Origin: Nitrospirota bacterium
GTDB taxonomy: Bacteria; Nitrospirota; UBA9217
DNA length: 64,000 bases
Assembly (NCBI GenBank): GCA_963740085.1
Contig: CAVUCU010000001.1
Coordinates: forward strand, 256,001 to 320,000
Direction: 5' to 3'
The notes under the pieces: generated by a model
Databases searched by the model: none
Seen by the model: the letters and a program-made list of their open reading frames with translations, nothing else
Told to the model about the DNA's origin: nothing
Translations under genes and position numbers: made by a program
In this document: positions 9,746 through 53,499 of the stretch, in pieces
Layout of the letters: the number at the start of each line of letters is the position of its first letter
Numbering within the stretch: position 1 is the stretch's first letter

Positions 9746-10807
9746 TTATTGCAGGGTAAAGTAAAAAGTCGTACCTGCATTCACTCTGCTCTCGGCCCAG
9801 ATACGGCCACCATGACGTTGAATGATACGCATTACTGTAGCAAGGCCTATACCAGTGCCTGGGAAGTCAATTTGAGAGTGAAGTCGTTGAAACGGCCTAA
9901 ATAATCTTTCAGCATTATCCATGCTGAACCCCGCGCCATTGTCCTTCACGAAATAGACATCTTTTCCGTTTATTTTCGTCATGCCAAATTCAATTTTTGA
10001 GATGGATCGATGCTTAGTGAATTTCAAAGCATTTTCCACGAGGTTGAAGATTATCACTTGAAGCAACGCAGGATCGCCATTTGCGGTTACTCCCTCTGTC
10101 GCAACAAATTCTATTTTGCGTCCAGGCCAGAATTTTACACTTTCTTCTACTGCTCTTTTTACCATAGCGGTCAGGTCTACGCTGGATCGGTTCGGATCGC
10201 CGCGAGCATAATGTGACAAATCAAGCAAAGCATCTATAAGCTCCTTCATTCTTCTGGCGTTGACCTGTATGCGCTCGATGTAATCGTCACTCGTTTCATC
10301 GAGCTTGCCGGAGTATTGATCGGCAAGCATCTGCGCATAACTTTCAATGCGCCAGAGAGGAGAAATCAAATCATGAGACACCGAGTAGGAAAAAGCATCC
10401 AGATACTCATTTGCGGTCTTAACATCATTCATACTTTTTTGAAGTTCTACTGACAATTGGTTTTGCTTGTGTAATAAATATTGTAATTTTGTCAGCATGA
10501 AAGAGGCAAGAACGAATAGAATAAAGATCAGGAACAAGTTCCACATATCAAGAAAACGAATATGATAACCTGGGTCAGATAAATGGTCTGAAAAGTAAAT
10601 GGACAGGCAAGAGATCGTGGAGATGATAATTCCGGCTTTATTACTTATATACCAGACAATAAATGATATGGGCAATATATAGGCAACATCTATTCTTATT
10701 TCGCTGCCCGTAATGTAATCCAGAACTCCTACTCCCAAAGTAAGCGCCATACCGATAGCCATCAGACTTGTCTTTGACTTCTTTTTTAAATAGGTATCGA
10801 TACTCAT
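9746..10807 (-). CDS. Membrane sensor histidine kinase
   Basis: N-terminal TM bundle; H-box FSYSVSHDL, NLVENALKF, DNGAGF, GTGIGLA. Confidence 0.92.
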   Translation of the reverse strand: MSIDTYLKKKSKTSLMAIGMALTLGVGVLDYITGSEIRIDVAYILPISFIVWYISNKAGIIISTISCLSIYFSDHLSDPGYHIRFLDMWNLFLIFILFVLASFMLTKLQYLLHKQNQLSVELQKSMNDVKTANEYLDAFSYSVSHDLISPLWRIESYAQMLADQYSGKLDETSDDYIERIQVNARRMKELIDALLDLSHYARGDPNRSSVDLTAMVKRAVEESVKFWPGRKIEFVATEGVTANGDPALLQVIIFNLVENALKFTKHRSISKIEFGMTKINGKDVYFVKDNGAGFSMDNAERLFRPFQRLHSQIDFPGTGIGLATVMRIIQRHGGRIWAESRVNAGTTFYFTLQ

Positions 10808-11033
10808 ATGTAAATATCTCCAGAAATTCGTGAAGATGTCTATTGCCTGTTGATCATATCAGACACCGGAAACACAAAAAGGATGCTATTGTTATAGAAG
10901 TGCAAAATTATTTATTTACCTTTTTTGTGGCAATGGTGTCACATATTATGTGATTCGATTCTTATTGTACGCCATTACGACAAAAGAATTTTGAGGGCAT
11001 GAAGAAAGACCATTCATAAATGGGAGGGAATCC

Positions 11034-11459
11034 ATGGAAAAGATTGAAGGATTAGACCGTGTTCAAGTTAACGCAGATAAAAGAATGCCAACCATTCTGA
11101 TAGTTGACGATGAATCTGAAAATCGGAAAATTATTGCCACTCTGCTTGGTGATTTAGGTTATAACGTTATTGCTGAGGAGGACGGGACATCAGCGCTATC
11201 GAGAATCCAGCAAGGAGCTAAAATCGACCTAGTTCTTACCGATGAGCGGATGCCTGACATGAGCGGCCTGGAGCTCATCGAAACGTTAAGAACGGTGGTC
11301 CCTTCTCTCCCGGTGATTCTTATCACTGCATACGGTAGTATAGAAAACTATCTCCGGTCATCGAGTCTCGGCGTGTTCGAGTATGTAAATAGGCCTGTAG
11401 GTAAACGAGAACTCGGGAAGATCGTAAAAACCGCTCTTCGTCCCTTTGCAATAAATTGA
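11034..11459 (+). CDS. Single-domain response regulator (receiver)
   Basis: ILIVDDE, LTDERMPDMSG, ITAYG. The conserved KP is replaced by RP (YVNRP). Confidence 0.85.
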   Translation: MEKIEGLDRVQVNADKRMPTILIVDDESENRKIIATLLGDLGYNVIAEEDGTSALSRIQQGAKIDLVLTDERMPDMSGLELIETLRTVVPSLPVILITAYGSIENYLRSSSLGVFEYVNRPVGKRELGKIVKTALRPFAIN

Positions 11460-11667
11460 TTCCACTGTGTCCTAATATTTTATGAAAAGCTTGCACGATG
11501 ATATTGAATACGTCATGTACTCTGCAGATTCCACGTGACGCAACTGCTGCGGGGTACAGGAAGAAGGTCTTGACTGCGATCATGTCATAAAACATAAAGT
11601 TACAGACAGTTTTATTGATTATGTAACCCTCACAGGCTACGCCTTCCGCAATTTGACAATCTCTCTA

Positions 11668-11871
11668 CTATCTCTTATGGTTCTCCTCCGGATCCGGCTT
11701 GCTTCCCCGTGTTACTTCCGCGTCATAGCATTCGTTATTGTTCAGTCCTCTATCAAGTTCTTCGTCTGTCCATTCGGGTGAAATAGCTGCAAACGCATCG
11801 GTGCCTTCAACCTTCCAACGACTGATCTCAATACCTCTCTTGGCTTTTTCATTTACAGTAAATTCCGGCAT
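11668..11871 (-). CDS. Small acidic hypothetical protein
   Basis: 67-aa ORF only, no recognisable motif. Confidence 0.3.
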   Translation of the reverse strand: MPEFTVNEKAKRGIEISRWKVEGTDAFAAISPEWTDEELDRGLNNNECYDAEVTRGSKPDPEENHKR

Positions 11872-14878: not shown

Positions 14879-15550
14879 ATGGAAGAAATGAATATTATAC
14901 AAAAGATCGTCATCATGGCCCCGCCGCTCATATTCGCCATTGTATTGCATGAAGTGGCGCACGGCTGGGTTGCGGACAAGCTTGGCGATCATACAGCCAA
15001 GGATATGGGCAGGCTCACGCTGAATCCCATCTCGCACATTGATCTCTTCGGCACGATCATCATACCAGTCGTATGCATCCTTGCCCACGGCCCTATTTTC
15101 GGCTATGCCAAACCGGTGCCGATCAACCCCTCCAACTTCAAAAATCCAAAAAAAGATATGGCGCTTTCGTCGCTTGCGGGCCCGGGTGTCAACATCATCA
15201 TGGCTCTCGCATTTGCGTTCCTGTTCCGAATCATCATGCCTGCACTGGAAGGCAAGCTGTCCACGCAGTCTTGGCAACAGTTTGCTAATCCCCTCAGTTT
15301 GATGTTCGGTTATGGTATCATCATCAACGTCGCTCTCGCGGTACTCAACATGATACCCATTCCCCCGCTTGATGGGAGCAGAATAGTCTATTGGATGCTT
15401 CCGGATAAGTATGCAACTGCGTACTATCGACTGGAACGATATGGACTGATCATACTCGTTTTTCTCCTCGTCACCAATATTCTGAGCAAAATCATAATGC
15501 CTATCCTCCAGCCGATCCTGTCGTTGCTGCTGGGCGGGGATATTATGTGA
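14879..15550 (+). CDS. Site-2 protease, peptidase M50
   Basis: HEVAH, AGP, NMIPIPPLDG. Confidence 0.92.
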   Translation: MEEMNIIQKIVIMAPPLIFAIVLHEVAHGWVADKLGDHTAKDMGRLTLNPISHIDLFGTIIIPVVCILAHGPIFGYAKPVPINPSNFKNPKKDMALSSLAGPGVNIIMALAFAFLFRIIMPALEGKLSTQSWQQFANPLSLMFGYGIIINVALAVLNMIPIPPLDGSRIVYWMLPDKYATAYYRLERYGLIILVFLLVTNILSKIIMPILQPILSLLLGGDIM

Positions 15551-15625
15551 AACAGGGTCCGGGGTTCAGATTTCGATTCTTATCCGTGTCAATCCGTGTC
15601 CATCCGTGGTAAAAGAGGATTTCTT

Positions 15626-16609
15626 ATGCCCAAACAACGCGTCTTAAGCGGAATGCAGCCAAGCGGTCTCCTGCACCTCGGGAATCTCATGGGCGCCCTG
15701 GACAACTGGCGCAAGCTCCAGGACCAATACGAGTGCTATTACTTCATCGCGGACTGGCACGCACTCACCACGAACTACGCCGACACGTCGAATATCCGTG
15801 CGAACCGCAGCGAAATGGTGATCGACTGGCTCGCGGCCGGGCTCGACCCCGAGAAGTCCGTGCTCTTCCAGCAGTCCCTCGTGCCCGAGCACGCCGTGCT
15901 CCATGTGCTCCTGTCCATGTCCACGCCGCTCCCCTGGCTCGAGCGCGTTCCAACGTACAAGGAAAAAATAGACCAGATCCAGGACCGGGAGATGAACACC
16001 TACGGCTTTCTCGGTTACCCCGTGCTCCAGGCCGCCGATATCCTCATTTACAAGGCGCATTTCGTTCCGGTCGGCATCGACCAACTCCCTCACCTGGAAC
16101 TCACTCGGGAGATCTGCCGCAGGTTCAACCAGCTCTACGGCGGGGTATTCCCCGAACCGCAGCCGCTCATGACCGAGTACCCCAAGCTGCCGGGCACGGA
16201 CGGCCGCAAGATGAGCAAGAGCTACAACAACTGTCTCTACCTTTCCGAAAGTCCTGAAGCAATCACGAAAAAGGTGATGCAGATGATCACGGACCCGGCG
16301 CGTATCCGCCGGCAGGACCCGGGCAATCCCGATATCTGTCCTCTCTTTGCTCTCAATAAGATCTTCGCTCCCAAAGAATGGTGCGATCAGGTGAATGTGG
16401 AGTGCAGGCGCGCCGGGATCGGGTGCGTGGATGACAAGAAGGAACTGCTGAAGCACCTCCTTACCTATCTCAAGCCCATGCAGGACCGGCGGAAGGAACT
16501 GGCAGCGCATCCGGAGAGGGTCACCGAGATCATTCAGGAAGGCTCGCGCAAGGCCCGGGTCATCGCCGCCAGAACGCTCGCGGAAGCCAACGAAGCGATG
16601 AAGCTGTAG
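15626..16609 (+). CDS. trpS: Tryptophan--tRNA ligase
   Basis: SGMQPSGLLHLGN, YPVLQAADIL, VPVGIDQ, KMSKS. Confidence 0.97.
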   Translation: MPKQRVLSGMQPSGLLHLGNLMGALDNWRKLQDQYECYYFIADWHALTTNYADTSNIRANRSEMVIDWLAAGLDPEKSVLFQQSLVPEHAVLHVLLSMSTPLPWLERVPTYKEKIDQIQDREMNTYGFLGYPVLQAADILIYKAHFVPVGIDQLPHLELTREICRRFNQLYGGVFPEPQPLMTEYPKLPGTDGRKMSKSYNNCLYLSESPEAITKKVMQMITDPARIRRQDPGNPDICPLFALNKIFAPKEWCDQVNVECRRAGIGCVDDKKELLKHLLTYLKPMQDRRKELAAHPERVTEIIQEGSRKARVIAARTLAEANEAMKL

Positions 16610-29950: not shown

Positions 29951-30051
29951 AACCGCTAAGGCGCAAAGGTCGCGAAGGAAGGCAAAAGTTTTCTAATTGT
30001 TTAAAACTAAGAACAAAAGGTTTTCTTGGCGTTCCTCGCGTCTTCGCGGTT
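29951..30051. repeat. Empty GxxExxY-type inverted-repeat element
   Basis: AACCGCTAAGGCGCAAAGGTCGCGAAG, AT-rich spacer, CTTGGCGTTCCTCGCGTCTTCGCGGTT. Confidence 0.75.
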
Positions 30052-36730: not shown

Positions 36731-36757
36731 TGCGCGGGACAAACCATAAAAATCTTC

Positions 36758-36873
36758 TCTCGCAGAGGCGCAGAGTACGCAGAGACAGCAATACTTAATA
36801 AAGCAACGCCTTGGTCTTTGTCTTAATGCAAAAAGATTAAGCCTTTCTCTGCGAGCTCTGCGTCTCTGCGAGA
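36758..36873. repeat. Empty GxxExxY-type element, closest match to the filled copy
   Basis: TCTCGCAGAGGCGCAGAGTACGCAGAG, 62-nt spacer, CTCTGCGAGCTCTGCGTCTCTGCGAGA. Confidence 0.9.
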
Positions 36874-36894
36874 AACAGCCTTTCTACATTTCTT

Positions 36895-37972: not shown

Positions 37973-38062
37973 GTCCGCAGAGAACGCAAGGATCTCAGAG
38001 AAAAAACCGGATCTTGAACTTTTACCGTATAGGCTTTTGTGTTCCTTTCGCTCTTTGCGGTT
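37973..38062. repeat. Degenerate empty GxxExxY-type element
   Basis: CCGCAGAGAACGCAAGGATCTCAGAG ... TTTGTGTTCCTTTCGCTCTTTGCGGTT. Confidence 0.55.
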
Positions 38063-38116: not shown

Positions 38117-38890
38117 ATGAAGACATCAGACATCTCTAAACTTCTCCAGGGAGTCCGATCGGGCAAGATCGATGTCGAGACCGCGCTCAACCGGCTCAGG
38201 CACCTGCCTTTTGAGGACGTGTCATACGCCCACATCGACCATCATCGTCATCTGCGCCACGGCATGCCCGAGGTCATCTACTGTGAAGGAAAGACCCTGG
38301 AGCAGGTTGTCGGAATCACCGGTCGGATGCTCAAAGCCGGGAGCGACATCCTCGCCACCCGCGCGTCTGAAACAGTTTATAAGGCAGTCAAGAAACTCGA
38401 TCGCCGCGCACTCTACCATAAAGCCTCACGCACAATCGTGATACAGGATAAGAAGAAGACCCTGACCGCGGGTATCGTGCTCGTACTGACCGCGGGGACC
38501 TCGGATATCCCTGTTGCCGAGGAAGCCGCGGTGACGGCGGGCATGCTCGGCAGCACCGTTCAGACCGTGTACGACGTGGGAGTGGCGGGGATCCACCGAA
38601 TCCTGAGCAAGCGGGAGATGCTCGACTCCGCCAGGGTGATCGTTGTCGTAGCAGGCATGGACGGCGCGCTCCCGTCTGTCGTGGGCGGGCTCGTGGACAA
38701 ACCTGTGATCGCTGTGCCTACGAGCGTCGGCTACGGTGCGGGTTTTCAGGGGCTTGCCCCGCTCCTCACCATGCTCAACTCCTGTGCCTCGGGCGTCGCG
38801 GTCATGAACATCGACAACGGCTTCGGCGCCGGCGTGCTGGCGCACAGGATAAACCTGTTGGGAGAAAAATCCTGCTGTAGTGCGTCATAA
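38117..38890 (+). CDS. larB: Nickel-pincer cofactor biosynthesis protein LarB
   Basis: PEVIYCEGKT, AGTSD.PVAEEA, DVGVAGIHR, AGMDGALPSV, PTSVGYG, NIDNGFGA. Confidence 0.93.
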   Translation: MKTSDISKLLQGVRSGKIDVETALNRLRHLPFEDVSYAHIDHHRHLRHGMPEVIYCEGKTLEQVVGITGRMLKAGSDILATRASETVYKAVKKLDRRALYHKASRTIVIQDKKKTLTAGIVLVLTAGTSDIPVAEEAAVTAGMLGSTVQTVYDVGVAGIHRILSKREMLDSARVIVVVAGMDGALPSVVGGLVDKPVIAVPTSVGYGAGFQGLAPLLTMLNSCASGVAVMNIDNGFGAGVLAHRINLLGEKSCCSAS

Positions 38891-39015
38891 ATCCCTATCC
38901 TTTGATCGTCATTCCGGGCTTACCCCGAATCCGGTCTTTTCGATCTGGATTCCTGCTCCTGTTTTCTCCGTTGCTTTACGGTAGATTTCAGTTCTGTTCG
39001 ACAGGTAATTGTTCA

Positions 39016-40269
39016 ATGTCCCACAGGAAACAACATCGAAAAAGTTCGCATCACGCCGTTTTACCCGCGGGTTTGTCCCGCTTTATACCGGGCAATCAGG
39101 TCAGCCTGTTGCAGAACGGCGAGGCCTATTTCCCCGCGCTCGAAGCGGCGTTCGACCGTGCACGTCATGAAATATATCTTGAAACATATATTTACGAAAA
39201 TGACGCCACCGGACAGCGGATCGCGGACGCGCTGAAGCGGGCTGCCTTGCGCGGCGTACACGTCCATGTGCTGATCGACGGCTACGGTTCCAAGGACCTG
39301 CCGCGAAGCATGCTGGACCGTCTGCGGGCGGACGGGGTGAAGGCGCTCATCTACCGGCCCAAGATATCCCCCTGGACGTTTCGACGCAAGCGCCTGCGAA
39401 GGATGCACCGGAAGATCGCGGTCGTGGACCGGGAGATCGCCTTTGTCGGAGGGATCAATATTATTAATGACCGCGAAGCGACGGGCGACATGCCCCCTCG
39501 CTACGACTACGCGGTCGCCGTGGAAGGGCCTCTGGTGGACGTGATCCGTCTTCCCGTCCAGCGTCTGTGGTCAATGGTGGCGTGGAGCTATTTTCGCAAA
39601 GGGGCTGTCCGGGGCGCGCCACTGCCTGTTTCAGCCTCCGCCGGGGGGCGAATGAGCGCGGCATTCCTGGTGCGGGACAATTTTCACCATCGCCGGGACA
39701 TTGAAGCGGCGTATATGCGCGCGATCGAACAGGCAAAATCCGAGATCATTCTTGCCCATGCCTACTTTTTGCCGGGGCTTGATTTTCGTCATGCGCTTAT
39801 CAATGCGGCCGGGCGCGGCGTCCGGGTGGTTTTGCTGCTGCAGGGAAAGGTGGAATATTATCTCCAGTATTATGCATCGCGGGCCCTCTATGGCCATTTT
39901 CTCGATGCGGGAGTTGAGATTTACGAATACCGCAAGAGCTTCCTGCACGCCAAAGTCGCGGTGATCGACGGGCATTGGGCGACGGTGGGGTCTTCGAATC
40001 TCGATCCGTACAGCCTGCTGCTTTCACGCGAAGCGAATGTTGTCGTCGACGACGAAGAATTTGGCGCGACCCTGACGCAAAGCCTGAAACAGACCATGGA
40101 GATCGACGGCCGGCGGATCCTCAGGGACAGCTGGAAACGGCAGCCCTTTTTTTCCAGGTTCATGAGCTGGCTCAGTTATGGTCTGGTGCGCTTAATGATG
40201 GGAGTGACCGGGTATGCCCGTGAAGACATCCGGACCGGGAACGATCGAACGACTGCGCATGAGGACTGA
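39016..40269 (+). CDS. clsB: Cardiolipin synthase ClsB-type (two HKD motifs, no N-terminal TM)
   Basis: MHRKIAVVD...GGIN; LHAKVAVID...GSSNLD. Confidence 0.85.
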   Translation: MSHRKQHRKSSHHAVLPAGLSRFIPGNQVSLLQNGEAYFPALEAAFDRARHEIYLETYIYENDATGQRIADALKRAALRGVHVHVLIDGYGSKDLPRSMLDRLRADGVKALIYRPKISPWTFRRKRLRRMHRKIAVVDREIAFVGGINIINDREATGDMPPRYDYAVAVEGPLVDVIRLPVQRLWSMVAWSYFRKGAVRGAPLPVSASAGGRMSAAFLVRDNFHHRRDIEAAYMRAIEQAKSEIILAHAYFLPGLDFRHALINAAGRGVRVVLLLQGKVEYYLQYYASRALYGHFLDAGVEIYEYRKSFLHAKVAVIDGHWATVGSSNLDPYSLLLSREANVVVDDEEFGATLTQSLKQTMEIDGRRILRDSWKRQPFFSRFMSWLSYGLVRLMMGVTGYAREDIRTGNDRTTAHED

Positions 40270-40396
40270 CACACACTCCTTCGAGGATATCCTGCTATAA
40301 TTCAAAGAAGAACCTGGAGAGAAGAAATGACCGGTTCTTTCTCCGTGATCAGCCGACATCATATTACTATTTGTCTATGGAGCCTTCATCCCTGTA

Positions 40397-41254
40397 ATGA
40401 AGAAGCATCAAAACATACGTATGCTCCTCAGTCGGTTCATTGCTTTCCTGACCAGTGTACTGAGTGACTTCAGACGCAATCAGGGTCTCTTGCTGGCCGG
40501 CGCTCTCGCCTATTATACCCTGCTGTCAATTGTACCCCTGTCGATCCTCGCCCTGATTGTGCTGTCACATTTTATCGGGAAGGCCGAGTTATTTTACACC
40601 TTGTCGACCTATATAGAAATGATGATACCGGGCTATTCGGCTACCTTGAGTGATCAAGTTCGGGTATTTCTGGAACACAGCAGTACGGTCGGGGGTTTTG
40701 TATTTTTGATTATGCTTTTTTTCAGTTCCATAGCCTTTACCGTGCTCGAAAGCGCCATGTCGGTGATCTTTTTTCATCGTTTTCGAACGAAACAGCGTCG
40801 CCTGCTCCTCTCCGCCATTATTCCTTATGTGTATATCTTCTTGATCGGCCTTGGTATCCTGCTGGTGTCGTTTATTGCGGGCGCCATAGAGACCTATAGC
40901 GGCAGGCAGTTAATCATATTCGGATGGGGTTTCAGCCTTCAGGGCCCTTCCTTCGTTGCGCTGTATTTAATCGGGATACTCGGCGAGGTACTGCTGCTGA
41001 CGTCCTTCTATCTGGTCATGCCCGTGGCGCGTATCACATTCCGGTACGCTCTGATGGGAGGGACGATCGCGACGGTCTTATGGGAGATCACCCGCCGCGT
41101 ATTGGTCTGGTATTACTCAGTCCTCTCAACGGTAAATGTAATCTACGGTTCTTTTGCCACGTCAGTGGTGGCACTGCTCAGTTTAGAGGCGATTGCTGTT
41201 ATCGTCTTGCTGGGGGCCCAGTGCATTGCGGAACTAGAGCGCAGAAAGGCTTAG
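40397..41254 (+). CDS. YihY/BrkB family membrane protein
   Basis: AGALAYYTLLS.VP, YGSF, LLGAQ. Confidence 0.88.
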   Translation: MKKHQNIRMLLSRFIAFLTSVLSDFRRNQGLLLAGALAYYTLLSIVPLSILALIVLSHFIGKAELFYTLSTYIEMMIPGYSATLSDQVRVFLEHSSTVGGFVFLIMLFFSSIAFTVLESAMSVIFFHRFRTKQRRLLLSAIIPYVYIFLIGLGILLVSFIAGAIETYSGRQLIIFGWGFSLQGPSFVALYLIGILGEVLLLTSFYLVMPVARITFRYALMGGTIATVLWEITRRVLVWYYSVLSTVNVIYGSFATSVVALLSLEAIAVIVLLGAQCIAELERRKA

Positions 41255-41359
41255 GATCTCCAGCTGCTATATCCCGGTCCCGGGCTCATGTGATATACTT
41301 GGTCCATAACACGACCGGCTTCTGATGAGGTCGAACATTCTTTCCAGGGAGGTTTTATC

Positions 41360-41713
41360 ATGAGATCCGCAGTGTATGTCCTGAAAACGTTGTTTTTCCT
41401 GAGTATAGCATTGACATCGGTATTAGCTGGTTTTTCGGTCTATGCCGCTGACCAGACAATTTGTCATCCTGGTGCGAATGTTTTACTTTATGACAACGGT
41501 TCGCTTAAAGGTTGCCAACTCAAAAATGATTACGAAGCGAATGGCATCAAATGTAAAAGCAATGGTCCTGCCAGTTTTTATAACAACGGCAACCTGGAAT
41601 CGTGTGTGCTCGCCACGCCGGTTACCCTGGACGCGAATAAATGCAAGGAAGATGGTCTGATTACTTTTTACATCGATGGCAAACTGAAATCATGCGTGAA
41701 ACCAAGTAACTGA
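41360..41713 (+). CDS. Small exported protein with three Cys-containing beta-hairpin repeats
   Basis: Signal peptide; YDNGSLKGC / YNNGNLESC / YIDGKLKSC. Confidence 0.7.
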   Translation: MRSAVYVLKTLFFLSIALTSVLAGFSVYAADQTICHPGANVLLYDNGSLKGCQLKNDYEANGIKCKSNGPASFYNNGNLESCVLATPVTLDANKCKEDGLITFYIDGKLKSCVKPSN

Positions 41714-41873
41714 AGAAGAGGATCGAGGGGAATGTTTTTCAGTGAAACATCCTGTCACAAGAATTTAATTTTCCCATCAACTTTTTTTAGCAGGAGTTGG
41801 GAGAAAAATATAACTCGCGCCATGCCACCTCAAGCGAAGCCTGGCGTTTCCGGCGCACGCTCAGCACCACATC

Positions 41874-43304
41874 ATGGTGCGCGGGATCGACAAATCGACT
41901 ATCGTGACAATCAATCCCTTCTTTAAACCTTTCTTTCTGTTCTTCCTGACCGTATCCCTCCTGGGCCTCGGCAATGGATGTGCGACCTTGCCGAACGTTT
42001 CCGAAATGATTAATGAGACGCCGGCTGCACAGAAACCCCGTCAAATCGTTTCGTCCAAAGGGCTGTTGTCTCCCCAGAAAAGCAAAGCTATCATGGAACG
42101 GCTGAAGCGATCGGTCGACCCGACCGACATTCTGGAGCGCCACACTGCCGTGGTAGAATCGGTCACCGAAAGCCCGCTGACGAAGGGGAACAAAGTCACA
42201 CTGCTCGCCGATGGTCAGGCTGCCTATGCCGCCATGTTCAAGGCAATACAGATTGCCAAAGACCACATCAACCTTGAAAGCTATATCATTGAAGATGATG
42301 AAGCTGGCCGAAAATTTTCCGATCTGTTGCTGCAAAAACAGGCGGAAGGTGTCCCGGTAAATCTCATCTATGACAGCATCGGCAGTTTCAGTACCCCTAC
42401 TGCATTTTTCCAGCGCCTGCGGGACGGGGGAATTCAGGTGGTCGAATTCAATCCAATAAATCCGTTCAAAGCCCACGGGCACTGGCTCCTGGCGCATCCG
42501 GACCACCGCAAGATTTTGATCATCGACGGCAACGTCGCCATTGCAGGGGGTATCAATATCAGTTCGGTTTATTCGAGCGGTCTTTCAGGAAGGCGAGTAG
42601 TGGAAGGAAAACCCCTGCCCTGGCGTGACACCGACGTTCAAATCGAAGGCCCTGCGGTGGCTGAATTCCAGAAGCTATTTCTTGACACCTGGCAGAAGCA
42701 GAGCGGCCCGAAACTCCCTGAACGGAACTATTTCCCTGAGCTGAAAGAAAAGGGAAATGCCCTGGTGCGGGTGGTCGGCAGCACGCCGGGACAGAACAAC
42801 AGGATCACTTTTATCGTCTATGTGTCCGCCATCACTTTTGCAGAGCATTCGATTCACCTGACGAATTCCTATTTTATCCCCGACGACCAGATACTGGATG
42901 CCTTCACTGATGCCGCCAGGCGGGGTGTTGACGTAAAGATCATTCTGCCCTCAACCAGCGATTCCTCGCTGTCCTTAGATGCGGCACGGTATAATTATTC
43001 CGAGCTTTTGAAATCGGGGGTGAAGTTGTACGAACGCCGCAACGCCCTGTTGCATGCGAAAACTGCGGTGATTGACGGCATCTGGTCGACCGTCGGTTCT
43101 ACCAACATGGACTATTGGAGCTTGTTAAGCGATGACGAGGTGAATGCCGTTATCCTGAGTCGCGAGTTTGCCGTCGAAATGGAGAAGATGTTTGCCAGGG
43201 ACCTCGCAGAATCACAGCAGATTCAATGGGAAGAGTGGAAAAAAAGACCCTTGTTTCCAAGGATCAGGGAGTGGTTTGCACACGTATTTTCCCATTGGAT
43301 GTAA
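41874..43304 (+). CDS. cls: Cardiolipin synthase / PLD-family lipoprotein
   Basis: GNGCA lipobox-like site; DHRKILIID...GGIN; LHAKTAVID...GSTNMD. Confidence 0.85.
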   Translation: MVRGIDKSTIVTINPFFKPFFLFFLTVSLLGLGNGCATLPNVSEMINETPAAQKPRQIVSSKGLLSPQKSKAIMERLKRSVDPTDILERHTAVVESVTESPLTKGNKVTLLADGQAAYAAMFKAIQIAKDHINLESYIIEDDEAGRKFSDLLLQKQAEGVPVNLIYDSIGSFSTPTAFFQRLRDGGIQVVEFNPINPFKAHGHWLLAHPDHRKILIIDGNVAIAGGINISSVYSSGLSGRRVVEGKPLPWRDTDVQIEGPAVAEFQKLFLDTWQKQSGPKLPERNYFPELKEKGNALVRVVGSTPGQNNRITFIVYVSAITFAEHSIHLTNSYFIPDDQILDAFTDAARRGVDVKIILPSTSDSSLSLDAARYNYSELLKSGVKLYERRNALLHAKTAVIDGIWSTVGSTNMDYWSLLSDDEVNAVILSREFAVEMEKMFARDLAESQQIQWEEWKKRPLFPRIREWFAHVFSHWM

Positions 43305-43460: not shown

Positions 43461-44666
43461 ATGACCATCGCTTACTTCGATTGTTTTTCCGGCATATCCG
43501 GCGACATGACCCTCGGCGCGCTTGTGGACGCGGGCGTCTCGATCGACGCCTTGCGCGCGGAACTGGCGAGACTCGATCTTCCCGGCTACGAGATCACGTC
43601 TGACAAGGTTAAACGTTCCGGAATTGCCGCCACCAGGGTCCATGTCATCATTGATCAGAAAGACCAGACATCGCGCCATCTCTCGGAGATAGAAAAGATC
43701 ATAGAAGGTTCTTCACTGCCTTTAGCGGTAAGAAAGAACAGCCTGCGGATATTCAAACGGCTGGCGGACGCGGAAGCAAAGGTGCACGGCACGACGCCCG
43801 ACAAGATCCACTTCCATGAGGTCGGCGCGGTCGATTCGATTGTGGATATCGTCGGTTCGGTCATCGGTCTTGAGCTTCTGGGCGTCTCGAAGATCATGGC
43901 ATCCGCGATCAATGCCGGCTCAGGCATGGTCCAGACTTCTCACGGAATGCTTCCCATTCCCGCCCCGGCGACGGCTGAGCTGCTTGCCAATATCCCCCTG
44001 TATCAATCAGCAACCCTGTTTGAGCTCACCACGCCCACGGGTGCGGCGATCATCAGCACGCTCGGGTCCTCCTTCGGCCTCATGCCTCCGATGAAGGTCG
44101 AGCGGACCGCCTACGGCGCGGGTGATAAAGATTTTCCGGGACAGCCGAATGTCCTGCGGCTCATGATCGGGGAGCCGGTTGCCGGGTACGATGAGGATAC
44201 GTCCATCGTCATCGAGACGAATATTGATGACATGAACCCGCAGATGTATGATTATGTCGTCGAGAAGCTCATGCAGCAGGGCGCGCAGGATGTGTATCTC
44301 ACTCCGATCATCATGAAAAAAGGCAGGCCCGCGATCCTGTTGTCGGTATTAACCGATCGGTCGAAGACTGATATCCTGCTCAACACCCTGTTCCGGGAAA
44401 CGACCAGCATCGGCGTCCGGATCAAGGAAGCGGGGAGGAAGAAACTCTCCCGCGAGATGCGTGAAGTCGAAACCCCGTATGGCAAGATCGGGATAAAGAT
44501 CAGCAAGAACGGCAATGAGATACTCACGGTGACCCCTGAGTATGAGGATTGCAGAAGGATCGCGGAGGAAAGGCGAATACCTTTGAAACAAGTGATAGAA
44601 GAAGCGAAAGCCATCTTTTCTCGCAGAGGCGCAGAGGGCGCAGAGAAAAGCGATGACAGAAAATAA
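43461..44666 (+). CDS. larC: Nickel-pincer cofactor nickel insertase LarC
   Basis: YFDCFSGISGDMTLGAL, HFHEVGAVDSIVDI, PAPAT, ETNIDD, MKKGRP, PEYEDC. Confidence 0.95.
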   Translation: MTIAYFDCFSGISGDMTLGALVDAGVSIDALRAELARLDLPGYEITSDKVKRSGIAATRVHVIIDQKDQTSRHLSEIEKIIEGSSLPLAVRKNSLRIFKRLADAEAKVHGTTPDKIHFHEVGAVDSIVDIVGSVIGLELLGVSKIMASAINAGSGMVQTSHGMLPIPAPATAELLANIPLYQSATLFELTTPTGAAIISTLGSSFGLMPPMKVERTAYGAGDKDFPGQPNVLRLMIGEPVAGYDEDTSIVIETNIDDMNPQMYDYVVEKLMQQGAQDVYLTPIIMKKGRPAILLSVLTDRSKTDILLNTLFRETTSIGVRIKEAGRKKLSREMREVETPYGKIGIKISKNGNEILTVTPEYEDCRRIAEERRIPLKQVIEEAKAIFSRRGAEGAEKSDDRK

Positions 44667-45087
44667 TATAACGGGTAATATCATAGACTGCTGCCTTAAA
44701 ATTCATAAGACGTTAGGCCCTGGACTTTTGGAATCGGTCTATGAGGAAGCACTGGCATACGAATTAAAAAGAAGAGGTCTTCCTTGCGACAGGCAGGTTG
44801 AAGTTCCAGTTGTTTATGACGGGATCAAGATGAATATTGGCTTTCGCGCCGATATTATCGTGGATGGCGAGGTCATTGTAGAACTGAAATCCATTGAATC
44901 GGTTCACCCTGTTCACAAGAAGCAGCTTCTGACTTATTTGAAGTTATCACAAAAGAGAGTCGGACTGTTAATCAACTTTAACGAAGATTTCATCAAGAAC
45001 GGAATTGCTCGGATTGCGAATGGCATTTAACCGCTGACCTTTTGAATTTTATTTGCATCACTCTGCGCACTCTGCGCCTCTGCGAGA
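44619..45087 (+). mobile_element. Putative element: GxxExxY nuclease gene between 27-bp inverted arms
   Basis: Left arm 44619-44645 TCTCGCAGAGGCGCAGAGGGCGCAGAG; right arm 45061-45087 CTCTGCGCACTCTGCGCCTCTGCGAGA (26/27 complementary). Mobility is inferred. Confidence 0.6.
44653..45030 (+). CDS. GxxExxY protein (PD-(D/E)xK nuclease fold)
   Basis: LGPGLLESVYEEAL; RADIIVDGEVIVELK; QLLTYLK...GLLINF. Confidence 0.93.
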   Translation: MTENNITGNIIDCCLKIHKTLGPGLLESVYEEALAYELKRRGLPCDRQVEVPVVYDGIKMNIGFRADIIVDGEVIVELKSIESVHPVHKKQLLTYLKLSQKRVGLLINFNEDFIKNGIARIANGI

Positions 45088-45097
45088 TAAAAAGAGA

Positions 45098-46810
45098 ATG
45101 AGAACGATCCGCATTTCCATGGCACAGATCAACCCCGTCGTCGGCGATCTCGCGGGCAACCGGGATAAGATCATCGACGCGATCAATAACGCGAAAAAGC
45201 TCGATGCCGACATTGTCGCGCTGCCGGAGCTTGCCGTGACCGGTTATCCGCCGGAGGACCTGCTGCTGAAGCCCCGGTTCGTGCAGGACAGCATCAGGAC
45301 CCTCAAAGAGATCCAGCGGACTACGAGGGGTATCATCGCGATCGTCGGGTTCGTTGACAAGAGCCGCGACAACCTCTTCAATGCAGCCGCCATATTGACC
45401 CAGGGGAAACATATCTACACCTATCGCAAGGTCTTCCTGCCGAATTACGGCGTGTTCGATGAATATCGGTACTTCACTCCGGGAGGACGCTACCCCGTCA
45501 TCACGGTCAAGGGCGTCGGCGTGGGCGTGAATATCTGCGAGGACATCTGGTATGAAGAAGGGCCCACGCGCGTCCAGGCGCTGGCGGGCGCGGAGGTTAT
45601 CGTGAACATCAACGCGTCTCCCTACCATAAAGGCAAGGGCAAAGAGCGCTTGAAAATGCTTTCCGAGCGGGCGAAAGAGAACAACATCGTTATCTCATAT
45701 ACCAATACCGTCGGCGGTCAGGACGAGCTCGTTTTTGACGGCCAGAGCATGATCATCGATCGGAGCGGTAAAATTATCGCTCGCGGGAGGCAATTCGAAG
45801 AGGAACTGCTGACCATGGATATCCCTGTTCCCGGGGACATGGTCCGCTTTCCCGATAACCGGGAGCAGTTCAGCGATTTCCTCGATTATGTCTCTCTGTC
45901 GGAGTATCCGGCAGGAGCAAAGAAAAAGCTTCCTGTTGTAAGCCCCACCAAACCCCTCTCCGAGTGCGAGGAGGTGCACCGTGCCCTCGTGCTCGGCACG
46001 CGGGATTATATGCGCAAGAACGGTTTCAAGTCCGCGGTCATCGGCCTCTCAGGCGGCATTGATTCGTCGCTCGTAGCCGCGATCGCCGTGGAGGCCATGG
46101 GAAAAGAGAATGTGTTCGGCGTGTTCATGCCGTCACCGTACAGCTCGGACGAGAGCCGCGAAGACGCCGGCGATCTTGCCCGCAACCTCGGCATCAGGAT
46201 CCTGGAGATCCCCATCAAGCAGACCTTTGAATCGTATCTCACGACGCTTCGCCGGGTGTTCGAGAAAACAACGACCGACGTAACCGAAGAGAACCTCCAG
46301 GCCAGGATCCGGGGCAATATCCTTATGGCCCTCTCGAACAAGTTCGGCTGGCTCGTGCTCACCACGGGCAACAAGAGCGAGATGTCCGTTGGATATGCCA
46401 CATTATACGGTGACATGGCCGGGGGCTTTGCCGTGATCAAGGACGTTCCCAAGACCCTGGTCTATGAAGTATCACGATGCGTGAACAAGCTCGCGGGGAA
46501 GACCGTGATCCCGAGGCGCGTTATGACCAAGGCGCCGACCGCGGAACTCAGGCCGAACCAGAAGGACAGCGATTCCCTCCCCCTGTATTCGGAACTCGAC
46601 CCGATCCTGAAGGCCTATGTTGAGCAGGACAGAGAACGCACCGAGATAATCAAGATGGGATTTGACAGAAAGACCGTGGAACGCGTGATCCGTCTCGTGG
46701 ACTCAAGCGAGTACAAACGCCGCCAGGCCCCTCCCGGGGTCAAGATCACCCAGCGGGGACTGGGCAAGGACCGAAGGTTCCCGATAACGAACAGGTACAA
46801 GAGCTCTTAA
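45098..46810 (+). CDS. nadE: Glutamine-dependent NAD+ synthetase
   Basis: Nitrilase domain (PEL..TGYPPEDL, ICEDIW) plus GLSGGIDS, ENLQARIRG, TGNKSE, PTAEL. Confidence 0.96.
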   Translation: MRTIRISMAQINPVVGDLAGNRDKIIDAINNAKKLDADIVALPELAVTGYPPEDLLLKPRFVQDSIRTLKEIQRTTRGIIAIVGFVDKSRDNLFNAAAILTQGKHIYTYRKVFLPNYGVFDEYRYFTPGGRYPVITVKGVGVGVNICEDIWYEEGPTRVQALAGAEVIVNINASPYHKGKGKERLKMLSERAKENNIVISYTNTVGGQDELVFDGQSMIIDRSGKIIARGRQFEEELLTMDIPVPGDMVRFPDNREQFSDFLDYVSLSEYPAGAKKKLPVVSPTKPLSECEEVHRALVLGTRDYMRKNGFKSAVIGLSGGIDSSLVAAIAVEAMGKENVFGVFMPSPYSSDESREDAGDLARNLGIRILEIPIKQTFESYLTTLRRVFEKTTTDVTEENLQARIRGNILMALSNKFGWLVLTTGNKSEMSVGYATLYGDMAGGFAVIKDVPKTLVYEVSRCVNKLAGKTVIPRRVMTKAPTAELRPNQKDSDSLPLYSELDPILKAYVEQDRERTEIIKMGFDRKTVERVIRLVDSSEYKRRQAPPGVKITQRGLGKDRRFPITNRYKSS

Positions 46811-52643: not shown

Positions 52644-52786
52644 ATATTGATGGTTTCTTTAAGAAATCTGGTTTAACCGCAGAGCCGCGGAGGCCGCAGA
52701 GGTAACCAATCAAATTATTAAGGTTTTATTCTCCGCGTCCCAGCGTCTCTGCGGCAGATAATTATTTTTACGATTGCATCAATATT
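52643..52786. repeat. Nested palindromes: outer AATATTGATG/CATCAATATT enclosing an empty GxxExxY-type element (52675-52755)
   Basis: Inner AACCGCAGAGCCGCGGAGGCCGCAGAG ... CTCCGCGTCCCAGCGTCTCTGCGG; lies between convergent genes. Confidence 0.7.
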
Positions 52787-53402: not shown

Positions 53403-53499
53403 TACCACAGAGCACACAGAGAAGGAGTTGAATATATCCTCAGTGCCCTCTGCCTGCGCCCAGCGTTTACGAGTGGAACCGCGAGTGCGGGGTGTGGTT
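53403..53499. repeat. Empty GxxExxY-type element with an interrupted right arm
   Basis: TACCACAGAGCACACAGAG ... CTCAGTGCCCTCTG[42 nt]TGGTT. Confidence 0.6.

Follow-up and report, generated by a model that had tools for sequence, protein, structure and literature searches.

The subject of this analysis is a small nuclease gene enclosed by inverted repeats in a 64,000-nt stretch of DNA from a Nitrospirota bacterium (assembly GCA_963740085.1, contig CAVUCU010000001.1, positions 256,001 to 320,000), hereafter the window. The gene (44653..45030, plus strand) encodes a 125-aa protein of the GxxExxY/PDDEXK_3 family and lies between larC (43461..44666, plus strand; Pfam Ni_insertion match on residues 4-378 of 401) and nadE, encoding a glutamine-dependent NAD+ synthase (45098..46810, plus strand; NF010588, 1.2e-224). 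An earlier note, made from the letters alone, had described this open reading frame (ORF) as wedged into the larC-nadE junction between two inverted arms, and the anatomy it gave was recovered almost to the letter. The translated ORF matched TIGR04256 GxxExxY with an E-value of 8.8e-45 (151.8 bits, cut-off 35; profile positions 2-115 of 116) and PF13366 PDDEXK_3 with 1.8e-42 (144.9 bits, cut-off 22). It belongs to the family both by its score over the full length and by its intact motif and catalytic residues, E27, D67, E77, K79, Q91 and Y95 all being present. The stored form of the protein (P0028) has 100 aa and an apparent start at an internal TTG, presumably because the gene caller avoided the overlap with larC. 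ATG 44653 was taken as the start because it is supported by the family profile and the homologues.

The left arm (44616..44645, plus strand) consists of TTT-TCT followed by three CGCAGAG units, and the right arm (45061..45090, plus strand), with three CTCTGCG units and AGA-TAA, is its reverse complement. Together they make a 30-nt inverted repeat, 93% complementary, with the arms 415 nt apart, and its 27-nt core (44619-44645 and 45061-45087) pairs at 26 of 27 positions. Each arm does hold three units as the note had said, albeit the unit length given there (~9 bp) is slightly loose, the start-to-start spacing being 8 and 9 nt. Only 7 nt separate the left arm from the nuclease ATG and 30 nt the nuclease stop from the right arm, and the nadE ATG follows 8 nt past the 30-nt right arm (11 nt past the 27-nt core). 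The stop codon of larC is displaced, so that its ORF traverses the left arm, which is read as the last larC codons (C-terminal tail ..FSRRGAEGAEKSDDRK), and ends 14 nt inside the nuclease gene, in agreement with the overlap described earlier. As the note also had it, the unit shows neither a transposase nor an obvious target duplication: a Pfam scan of 61 window ORFs found no transposase, integrase or RAYT (tyrosine transposase associated with repetitive extragenic palindromic, REP, sequences), and no direct repeat abutting the arms was visible by eye in the 27 loci of the window's polarity (26 related loci plus the window). No cas genes occur in the window. At gathering thresholds the sole Rfam match in the window was a tRNA; the unit is thus not inside rRNA, and no Rfam family covers the arms.

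The same arms recur in the window away from the nuclease gene. With up to two mismatches, CGCAGAGNNCGCAGAG has 8 matches where 0.52 are expected, a number reached in 0 of 100 shuffles, and there are eight three-unit arrays against 0.55 expected from shuffles, all of them sitting in short intergenic gaps beside 3' gene ends. A profile built solely from 115 arrays of other genomes returned the four TCT-type arms as its top matches in the window (E 5.6e-4 to 2e-3), among them the left arm (44617-44647, E 5.6e-4) and the right arm (45089-45070 on the minus strand, E 2e-3). Overall, the window holds three clear and two decayed gene-less hairpins of the arm family. The hairpin at 36757..36874, between an MFS transporter gene and gpsA, is of the same subtype as the arms (TCT and three CGCAGAG units ... 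three CTCTGCG units and AGA), with a 62-nt loop, a DNA fold of -32.8 kcal/mol (z -5.67) and profile matches at E 8.6e-4 and 1.8e-3. Two others are of an 'AACC' subtype: 29951..30051 (AACCGCTAAGGCGCAAAGGTCGCGAAG ... CTTGGCGTTCCTCGCGTCTTCGCGGTT), between CBS-domain and START-domain genes (fold z -2.86, profile E 0.036), and the partly decayed 52675..52756, with a 29-nt loop, between convergent histidine-kinase and nitroreductase genes (fold z -2.84, profile E 0.02). The remaining two are weak and probably decayed, namely 37975..38062 (CCGCAGAGAACGCAAGG ... CTCTTTGCGGTT), between gpsA and a larB-like gene, with a two-unit array at 37976, and 53406..53452, made of CACAGAG units, whose fold (z -0.13) is no better than that of shuffles.

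The association of gene and arms extends far beyond the window. A scan of one genome per species, with an alignment of the window protein and 32 homologues as the query, yielded 80 loci at 52-65% identity, kept from at least 599 stretches; the window's own genome lies outside this set, which spans at least 15 phyla (68 loci carry a phylum label). When the two 215-nt flanks were compared for their best inverted repeat without gaps, 63 of 75 testable loci reached the threshold score of 12 (median 17), compared with 5 of 451 shifted controls (median 8, maximum 14). The check proposed earlier, a search for flanking inverted arrays around GxxExxY genes across genomes, thus turned out overwhelmingly positive. 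Three-unit arrays were 37-fold denser within 350 nt of the gene (157 arrays, 1.87/kb) than elsewhere (56 arrays, 0.051/kb; shuffles 0.010/kb). Their consensus across loci is TCW-CGCAAAG-N-CGCAAAG-N-CGCAAAG, with exactly three units in 152 of 159 arrays, a unit spacing of 8-8 in 115 and 8-9 in 29, and a preceding TCA or TCT in 118 of the 157 that lie near the 80 related genes. The pair TCACGCAAAGGCGCAAAGGCGCAAAG ... CTTTGCGCCTTTGCGCCTTTGCGTGA, taken from another locus, is built like the window arms. An unbiased 7-mer count gave a 44-fold enrichment of CGCAAAG, present in 53 of 80 loci, with CGCTAAG and CGCAGAG also among the top words.

A second hairpin subtype carries the outer ends AACC[G/A]C...GGTT in place of TCW...WGA and accounts for 12 of the 56 far arrays versus 2 of the 157 near-gene arrays. 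Apart from the two window hairpins (29951-30051 and 52675-52756), it was seen at L008 11392-11447, at L043 16632-17647 and in L088 (Gemmatirosa), where a frameshifted GxxExxY gene is placed between two complete hairpins of this subtype. No other recurrent gene family is bracketed by arrays. The possibility that the arms carry other cargo genes was rejected, the 16 other ORFs between far arrays being ordinary host genes or spurious, with no recurring family. No gene for a four-helix-bundle protein was found among 150 small ORFs in the flanks of the loci.

Arms and gene are inherited together. On a tree of 74 proteins, which omits seven genes interrupted by stops or frameshifts, the arm type (CGC or CAC units) changed 3 times; 300 shuffles gave 7.65 changes on average and never fewer than 6. 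Since the changes are so few and at least 5 phyla have CAC arms, it is the protein lineage, and not the host, that the arms follow. Together with the flanking repeats of most loci, this bears out the idea, put forward in the earlier note, that arms and nuclease form one co-inherited unit. The same note's picture of a sealed, self-contained element did not survive, because the same arms occur without the gene both in the window and in other genomes, far from GxxExxY genes, and arrays pile up in either polarity. The 56 far arrays, found in 1.1 Mb of flanks, compare with ~12 expected by chance, and several stand beside extra gene copies. In 17 of 20 loci the far gene-less arrays are of the same unit type as the gene residing there (when tested array by array, the data are not independent).

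The arrangement of arrays around the gene is variable. The nearest arrays point '><' in 44, '<>' in 15 and otherwise in 22 of 81 loci, and polarity changes 10 times on the tree (mean 13.3 in shuffles). The '<>' cases are genuine; in some of them a gene stands between two complete hairpins. Palindromes without a gene and with short spacers also occur, in both polarities (window 36757-36874; L003 15701-15777; L021 14616-14678). Array pile-ups adjoin some genes, with eight arrays upstream in L033. Stops or frameshifts interrupt 7 of 81 genes, and extra GxxExxY copies are present in L047, L069 and L038; in the latter, two copies 5.5 kb apart are 92% identical over 476 nt including the arms, the second copy being frameshifted. 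The L038 locus also repeats a 60-nt 'stop + TCT-arm' segment five times, nearly unchanged (10380-11760 and 15452-15959); the first four segments are spaced ~234-237 nt, with C-terminal gene fragments between three of them. In L048, an IS200/IS605-family transposase fragment (720-1040) lies 9 kb from the GxxExxY gene, with no apparent link to the arrays.

The gene occupies unrelated junctions in different lineages. In Sphingomonas the unit sits between fabD and fabG and in Bacteroides it follows radA. In the L082 locus (Sphingomonas parapaucimobilis, an 880-kb plasmid record), it lies within the fatty-acid synthesis operon, between fabD and fabG-acpP-fabF, and the annotated 142-aa ORF extends through the right arm. 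Plasmid and chromid members at 44-52% identity retain the arms, and the family was present in 8 of 72,556 plasmid or chromid records and in 0 of 50,697 phage records. Most close homologues come from contigs of 0.5-3 kb; this might result from repeat-flanked genes breaking assemblies or, equally, from ordinary metagenome fragmentation.

Another question is how long a unit stays where it is. Stable synteny had been set in the earlier note as one observation that would speak against homing, and the answer is divided: one orthologous site was found in five cyanobacteria, and the larC ends show turnover. All five cyanobacterial units have the same Met-gamma-lyase-like gene on one side and the same FrhB-like gene on the other, in flanks that are 81-88% identical (flank genes: desaturase, Met gamma-lyase and FrhB-like). 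An rRNA operon at these loci was rejected, the 5-kb flanks of L004, L006 and L017 giving only tRNA with Rfam. The ratio of nonsynonymous to synonymous substitution (dN/dS) of 0.10-0.21 among these orthologous copies, at dS up to 1.6, indicates purifying selection on the nuclease gene. The arms of the five loci comprise 26 pairs with 97.6% of cells paired, and 5 of the 26 pairs have changed on both sides, giving a covariation score reached in 0 of 500 shuffles. With five sequences, these apparently compensatory changes are no more than suggestive. Three pairs of Acidobacteriota loci (L001/L003, L014/L015 and L020/L076), each with a common upstream flank and '<>' polarity, suggest further orthologous, vertically kept units.

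The larC junction was followed through the protein tails of 120 LarC homologues at 72-93% identity plus the window (121 in total), the classes being drawn from these protein tails. The tail is arm-encoded in 60 of 121, short in 18 and unclear in 43, many of which resemble decayed arms. Seventeen tails of the ..AEKSDDRK type, including the window's, are the translation of the arm and the overlapping MTEN start, so that 16 homologues at 72-86% identity carry the window-type tail. The other 43 arm-encoded tails are of the CGCAAAG (37) or CGCAGAG (6) type, and one of the short tails (..EEAKKNL/KKQL) belongs to a protein 93% identical to the window LarC. The LarC tree requires 13 changes between filled and empty; in shuffles the mean was 16.2 and the lowest value 12. 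Close relatives show a scatter of filled and apparently empty larC ends, so the unit seems to undergo presence/absence turnover, and the junction would appear to be both long-lived and polymorphic. Seven LarC/GxxExxY match pairs agree in source and contig extent, which fits a location on common contigs. In the window, the larB-like gene of the AIR-carboxylase family (38117) is not contiguous with larC (43461); within 38117-43301, it is followed by a pair of PLD/cardiolipin-synthase-like genes, a gene of the BrkB family and a short ORF (41360-41710) of no known family, which separate the two.

The enzyme itself is highly conserved. In 33 aligned GxxExxY sequences 31 columns are invariant, including G24-L-L-E27-S-V-Y30, D67, E77-L-K79, Q91 and Y95. 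PDDEXK_3/GxxExxY is the sole Pfam/NCBIfam match of the window nuclease, with no sign in these databases of a HUH tyrosine transposase. Sub-threshold matches to Cas4 models cover residues 42-104 (PADLOC Cas4, E 0.0034 and 0.0069; Pfam Cas_Cas4, E 0.015 and 0.09 for two homologues). The Pfam scores, 13.3-15.8 bits in those two homologues only, stay below the cut-off of 22.7, and the protein was not assigned to Cas4. These aside, no defence-system model matched above noise, and no solved structure gave a sequence match up to E = 10 with either the single protein or the profile. GxxExxY is thus predicted from its residues to be a PD-(D/E)xK nuclease with a Cas4/RecB-like core. The family is very large: at E-values of up to 0.001, 22,541 clusters (50% identity) match it. 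In natural two-domain members (P0121-P0126 and P0133; 266-295 aa) the first domain keeps the E..D..ExK..QxxxY residues and the second lacks catalytic residues. Because these fusions carry a degenerate second domain, the working unit is probably a dimer; the fusions look like covalent pseudo-dimers with one active site and might act as nickases. According to the accessible part of the 2012 survey of PD-(D/E)xK proteins, the function of PDDEXK_3 was listed as 'Unknown' and the family had undergone multiple transfers (PMC3424549).

With regard to expression, an intrinsic terminator or a promoter belonging to the unit was rejected: the stretch from the left arm to the nuclease ATG holds no promoter-like site, and nothing resembling a terminator was found between larC and nadE. 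In 57 of 73 loci the upstream neighbor runs in the same direction, the median gap being 80 nt, and in 14 of the 27 loci of the window's polarity 0-8 nt separate the arm and the nuclease ATG. The co-transcription with the host operon proposed earlier is therefore plausible, and read-through from the larC operon with translational coupling to larC may be inferred from this arrangement. The pairing of the arms in mRNA, also proposed earlier, agrees with the predicted RNA structure, in which they form the closing stem of both the minimum-energy and the centroid fold of the unit (z -4.71). A sense-strand bias of arm mismatches toward G-U wobble was not seen (33 G.T vs 50 A.C among 148 non-Watson-Crick positions).

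These observations firmly support the idea that arm, gene and arm constitute one conserved, co-inherited module whose arms belong to a dispersed hairpin family. GxxExxY nucleases would accordingly live with cognate hairpin repeats, the arm being TCW plus three 8-nt units (CGCAAAG, CGCAGAG, CACGGAG and others). Of the readings considered, we favor one in which the nuclease works on the arrays as DNA and thereby keeps them up or multiplies them, in the manner of the REP doublets forming hairpins (REPINs) and their RAYTs, with another class of enzyme; whether it holds is in our judgment evenly balanced between yes and no. Under this reading, the nuclease gene would have no promoter of its own and be transcribed by read-through from larC, and in the transcript the arms would close a 27-bp stem around the nuclease cistron. 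Ribosomes finishing larC would traverse the left arm and terminate 14 nt beyond the ATG of the nuclease, opening the stem, and we therefore propose a coupled, low-level translation of the nuclease. Working as a dimer, the enzyme would recognize triple-unit arrays, most likely as a hairpin folded back in single-stranded DNA, and cut at or near their TCW ends. Cleavage would drive the copying, loss or homogenization of hairpins, including the pair around its own gene, and the outcome would be a persistent, mostly vertically inherited repeat-plus-enzyme system.

Several points weigh against this reading. Binding and cutting of the arrays by the nuclease are so far predictions. We know of no PD-(D/E)xK enzyme that joins strands, these enzymes hydrolyzing DNA, so the copying route would need host repair or replication. 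In the DNA covered, gene-less hairpins only modestly outnumber genes, with three to five per gene in the window, and no simple model predicts the frequent switching of polarity. The gene duplicates along with its arms in L038, unlike RAYTs. The covariation of the cyanobacterial arms could reflect gene conversion rather than selection for pairing, and the 'empty' LarC alleles are deduced from protein tails. Moreover, members at 33-43% identity have other flanks or none. Three such genes at 38-43% identity lack CGCAAAG arms and are flanked instead by 22-nt direct repeats (L084, a Fusobacteria plasmid), by ~60-nt direct repeats with an inner hairpin in each (L086, Prevotella) or by a 12-bp inverted repeat, ACACGGATTCGG (L085, Treponema); at a Persicobacter locus no flanking repeat was seen.

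The readings are not fully exclusive, and three others have to be weighed. The scattering of filled and short LarC tails on the tree, with 93%-identical relatives of each kind, and the joint transfer of gene and arms across phyla are what would be expected if arm, gene and arm moved as one autonomous mini-element, by excision and re-insertion or by homing. In the homing version the dimeric nuclease cuts empty palindromes at their center and repair copies the gene in through arm homology, and the gene-less hairpins are targets or internally deleted derivatives, as is the case for MITEs (miniature inverted-repeat transposable elements). Short-spacer palindromes of both polarities would then be the empty sites for both gene-bearing polarities, and the arms-included L038 copies, the pseudogenes and fragments, and the frequency of homologues on very short contigs would also fit. 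However, a homing gene is expected to decay once fixed, and the purifying selection at the one cyanobacterial site, together with the overlapping junction kept in 16 LarC relatives down to 72% identity, counts against it. Arms of 27 nt offer very little homology for copying by repair, there is no visible target duplication, and a unit with fixed ends does not predict multiple arrays beside the gene; the family is also absent from the phage records and rare on the plasmid ones. We consider such an element unlikely.

If, instead, the arms mattered as a long double-stranded RNA stem, the unit would be an RNA-level cassette resembling a ribosomal intervening sequence placed in an operon: RNase III would cut the stem, releasing or silencing the enclosed cistron and uncoupling the flanking host messages, and the role of the nuclease itself would be unrelated to the arms. 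The anatomy is indeed nearly that of the Coxiella 23S intervening sequence, as given in the accessible part of its description (PMC4990558), and the lack of an own promoter, the closeness of ATG and arm, the co-directional upstream genes, the stem closing both RNA folds and the compensatory changes at the cyanobacterial site all point the same way. Nevertheless, the arm mismatches show no wobble bias, and a stem alone requires neither a unit motif conserved in sequence across phyla nor exactly three units. In addition, arm type tracks the protein lineage, gene-less copies also occur between convergent genes (52675-52756), and neither the window nor the three scanned cyanobacterial loci place the unit in rRNA. 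This reading seems to us quite improbable. The strong purifying selection, the long persistence at fixed sites, the very high conservation across phyla and the presence in housekeeping operons without obvious harm (fabD/fabG in Sphingomonas, radA in Bacteroides) would also suit a nuclease serving the host in repair or defense, with the arrays as autoregulatory binding sites or insulators and no propagation. It is hard to reconcile, however, with gene-less arrays dispersed far from any GxxExxY gene, presence/absence turnover, pseudogenes and tandem fragments, unrelated junctions in different lineages and the absence of any defense-system match above noise, and it is very doubtful.

In the literature searched, no description of a GxxExxY gene-plus-arms system was found, an earlier notice outside that literature being possible. 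GxxExxY, PDDEXK_3, PF13366 and TIGR04256 have merely incidental mentions there, no paper containing the arm sequences was found with arm 15-mers, and PDDEXK combined with repeat terms gave nothing relevant. The gene with its arms thus looks like an undescribed, widespread repeat-and-enzyme system. Linking GxxExxY to a conserved DNA motif gives the family a concrete, testable substrate. The design explains why these genes are wedged into operon junctions and why gene callers mis-start them, and possibly why many homologues are on short contigs. Should the hairpins indeed be driven by the nuclease, then repeat-plus-enzyme symbioses like REPIN/RAYT have arisen at least twice with unrelated enzymes, and the short arrays would become a ready marker for annotating thousands of genomes. 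A minimal hairpin-specific nuclease whose recognition code is a defined 8-nt repeat might also be useful in practice. A still broader proposal, which we offer tentatively and hold to be somewhat less than probable, is that GxxExxY nucleases with their inverted triple-unit arrays make up a hitherto unrecognized pan-bacterial class of hairpin elements that propagate themselves, and the first REPIN-like system run by a PD-(D/E)xK enzyme in place of a HUH transposase. Together with ORF-bearing ribosomal intervening sequences they would define a general cassette, in which a 27-28-bp hairpin with three tandem units encloses a small ORF; the cassette would colonize both operon junctions and rRNA and survive by harmless processing out of host transcripts.

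Compared with known systems, the enzyme shares the order of its catalytic core (E ... D ... ExK ... QxxxY) with Cas4/RecB, Q91 and Y95 forming what we take to be the QxxxY motif; it differs from Cas4 in that all matches stay below curated cut-offs, no cas genes are nearby and the protein is a bare 125-aa domain. Homing endonucleases of the PD-(D/E)xK type exist. As with homing endonuclease genes, a small nuclease gene interrupts a symmetric site, with filled and apparently empty alleles in relatives. The GxxExxY unit, however, is associated with neither intron nor intein, its site is a dispersed repeat, and the gene persists under purifying selection instead of decaying once fixed.

MITEs and Correia elements are likewise short intergenic elements at gene junctions, with ~26-nt terminal inverted repeats and no transposase of their own, and Correia elements, in the accessible part of their description, are bound or cut by RNase III and alter the expression of neighbors (PMC2649163). 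The GxxExxY units differ from them in lacking a visible target duplication, in arms made of triple tandem units and in one class of copies that carries a dedicated, conserved nuclease gene. With no recognized transposase and no target-site duplication, they do not qualify as insertion sequences or MITEs. Insertion sequences that target REPs, such as ISPpu9, resemble them as gene-bearing elements in palindromes that also exist empty; as far as the accessible part of the report goes (PMC12288879), these carry a recognized transposase and their own ends, whereas the only gene of the GxxExxY unit is a 125-aa nuclease whose arms travel with it between phyla.

A strikingly similar anatomy, as noted above, is that of the 23S intervening sequence (Coxiella and Leptospira, S23p). 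The accessible part of the Coxiella report (PMC4990558) describes 428 nt whose 28-bp terminal stem contains one mismatch, with three heptamers in tandem ahead of the ATG, a small ORF lying within the loop and excision by RNase III in vitro; it mentions no own promoter, calls the sequence selfish with means of spread not known, and reports the ORF as decaying. Both kinds of unit thus measure ~430-470 nt, with a 27-28-bp stem bearing one mismatch and three short tandem repeats before a ~120-aa ORF inside it, and the larC-nadE unit, with 27-30 bp, has the long terminal stem enclosing an ORF. It lies, however, in a protein-coding operon and not in a 23S rRNA helix, and its ORF is a nuclease under purifying selection, whereas theirs encodes the S23p four-helix-bundle protein and, in Coxiella, is reportedly decaying.

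With REPIN-RAYT, the system after which our preferred reading is modeled, the differences lie mainly in enzyme and repeat. The enzyme is a PD-(D/E)xK nuclease instead of an IS200-like HUH tyrosine (Y1) transposase; the array motif is conserved across phyla, whereas REPIN repeats are lineage-specific; and an arm has three tandem 8-nt units, whereas a REP is one palindrome. The GxxExxY gene can duplicate with its arms (L038), and its gene-less copies, judged from 64 kb and 1.1 Mb of flanks, look far below the hundreds typical of REPINs. RAYTs are single-copy and mainly vertically inherited; GxxExxY genes are orthologous in the five cyanobacteria and the LarC clade, yet extra copies occur in L038, L047 and L069. 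In the accessible part of the REPIN-RAYT description (PMC3116915), the enzyme gene is flanked by inverted palindromic repeats that are also dispersed as gene-less doublets, a dimer acting on the doublet is proposed, and inheritance is largely vertical with long persistence. The GxxExxY units have the same features: a small enzyme gene flanked by and clustered with inverted repeats, gene-less hairpin doublets in intergenic DNA of the window and of other genomes, a repeat flavor that matches the enzyme lineage, inheritance that appears largely vertical, with long persistence, and a proposed dimer acting on the doublet.

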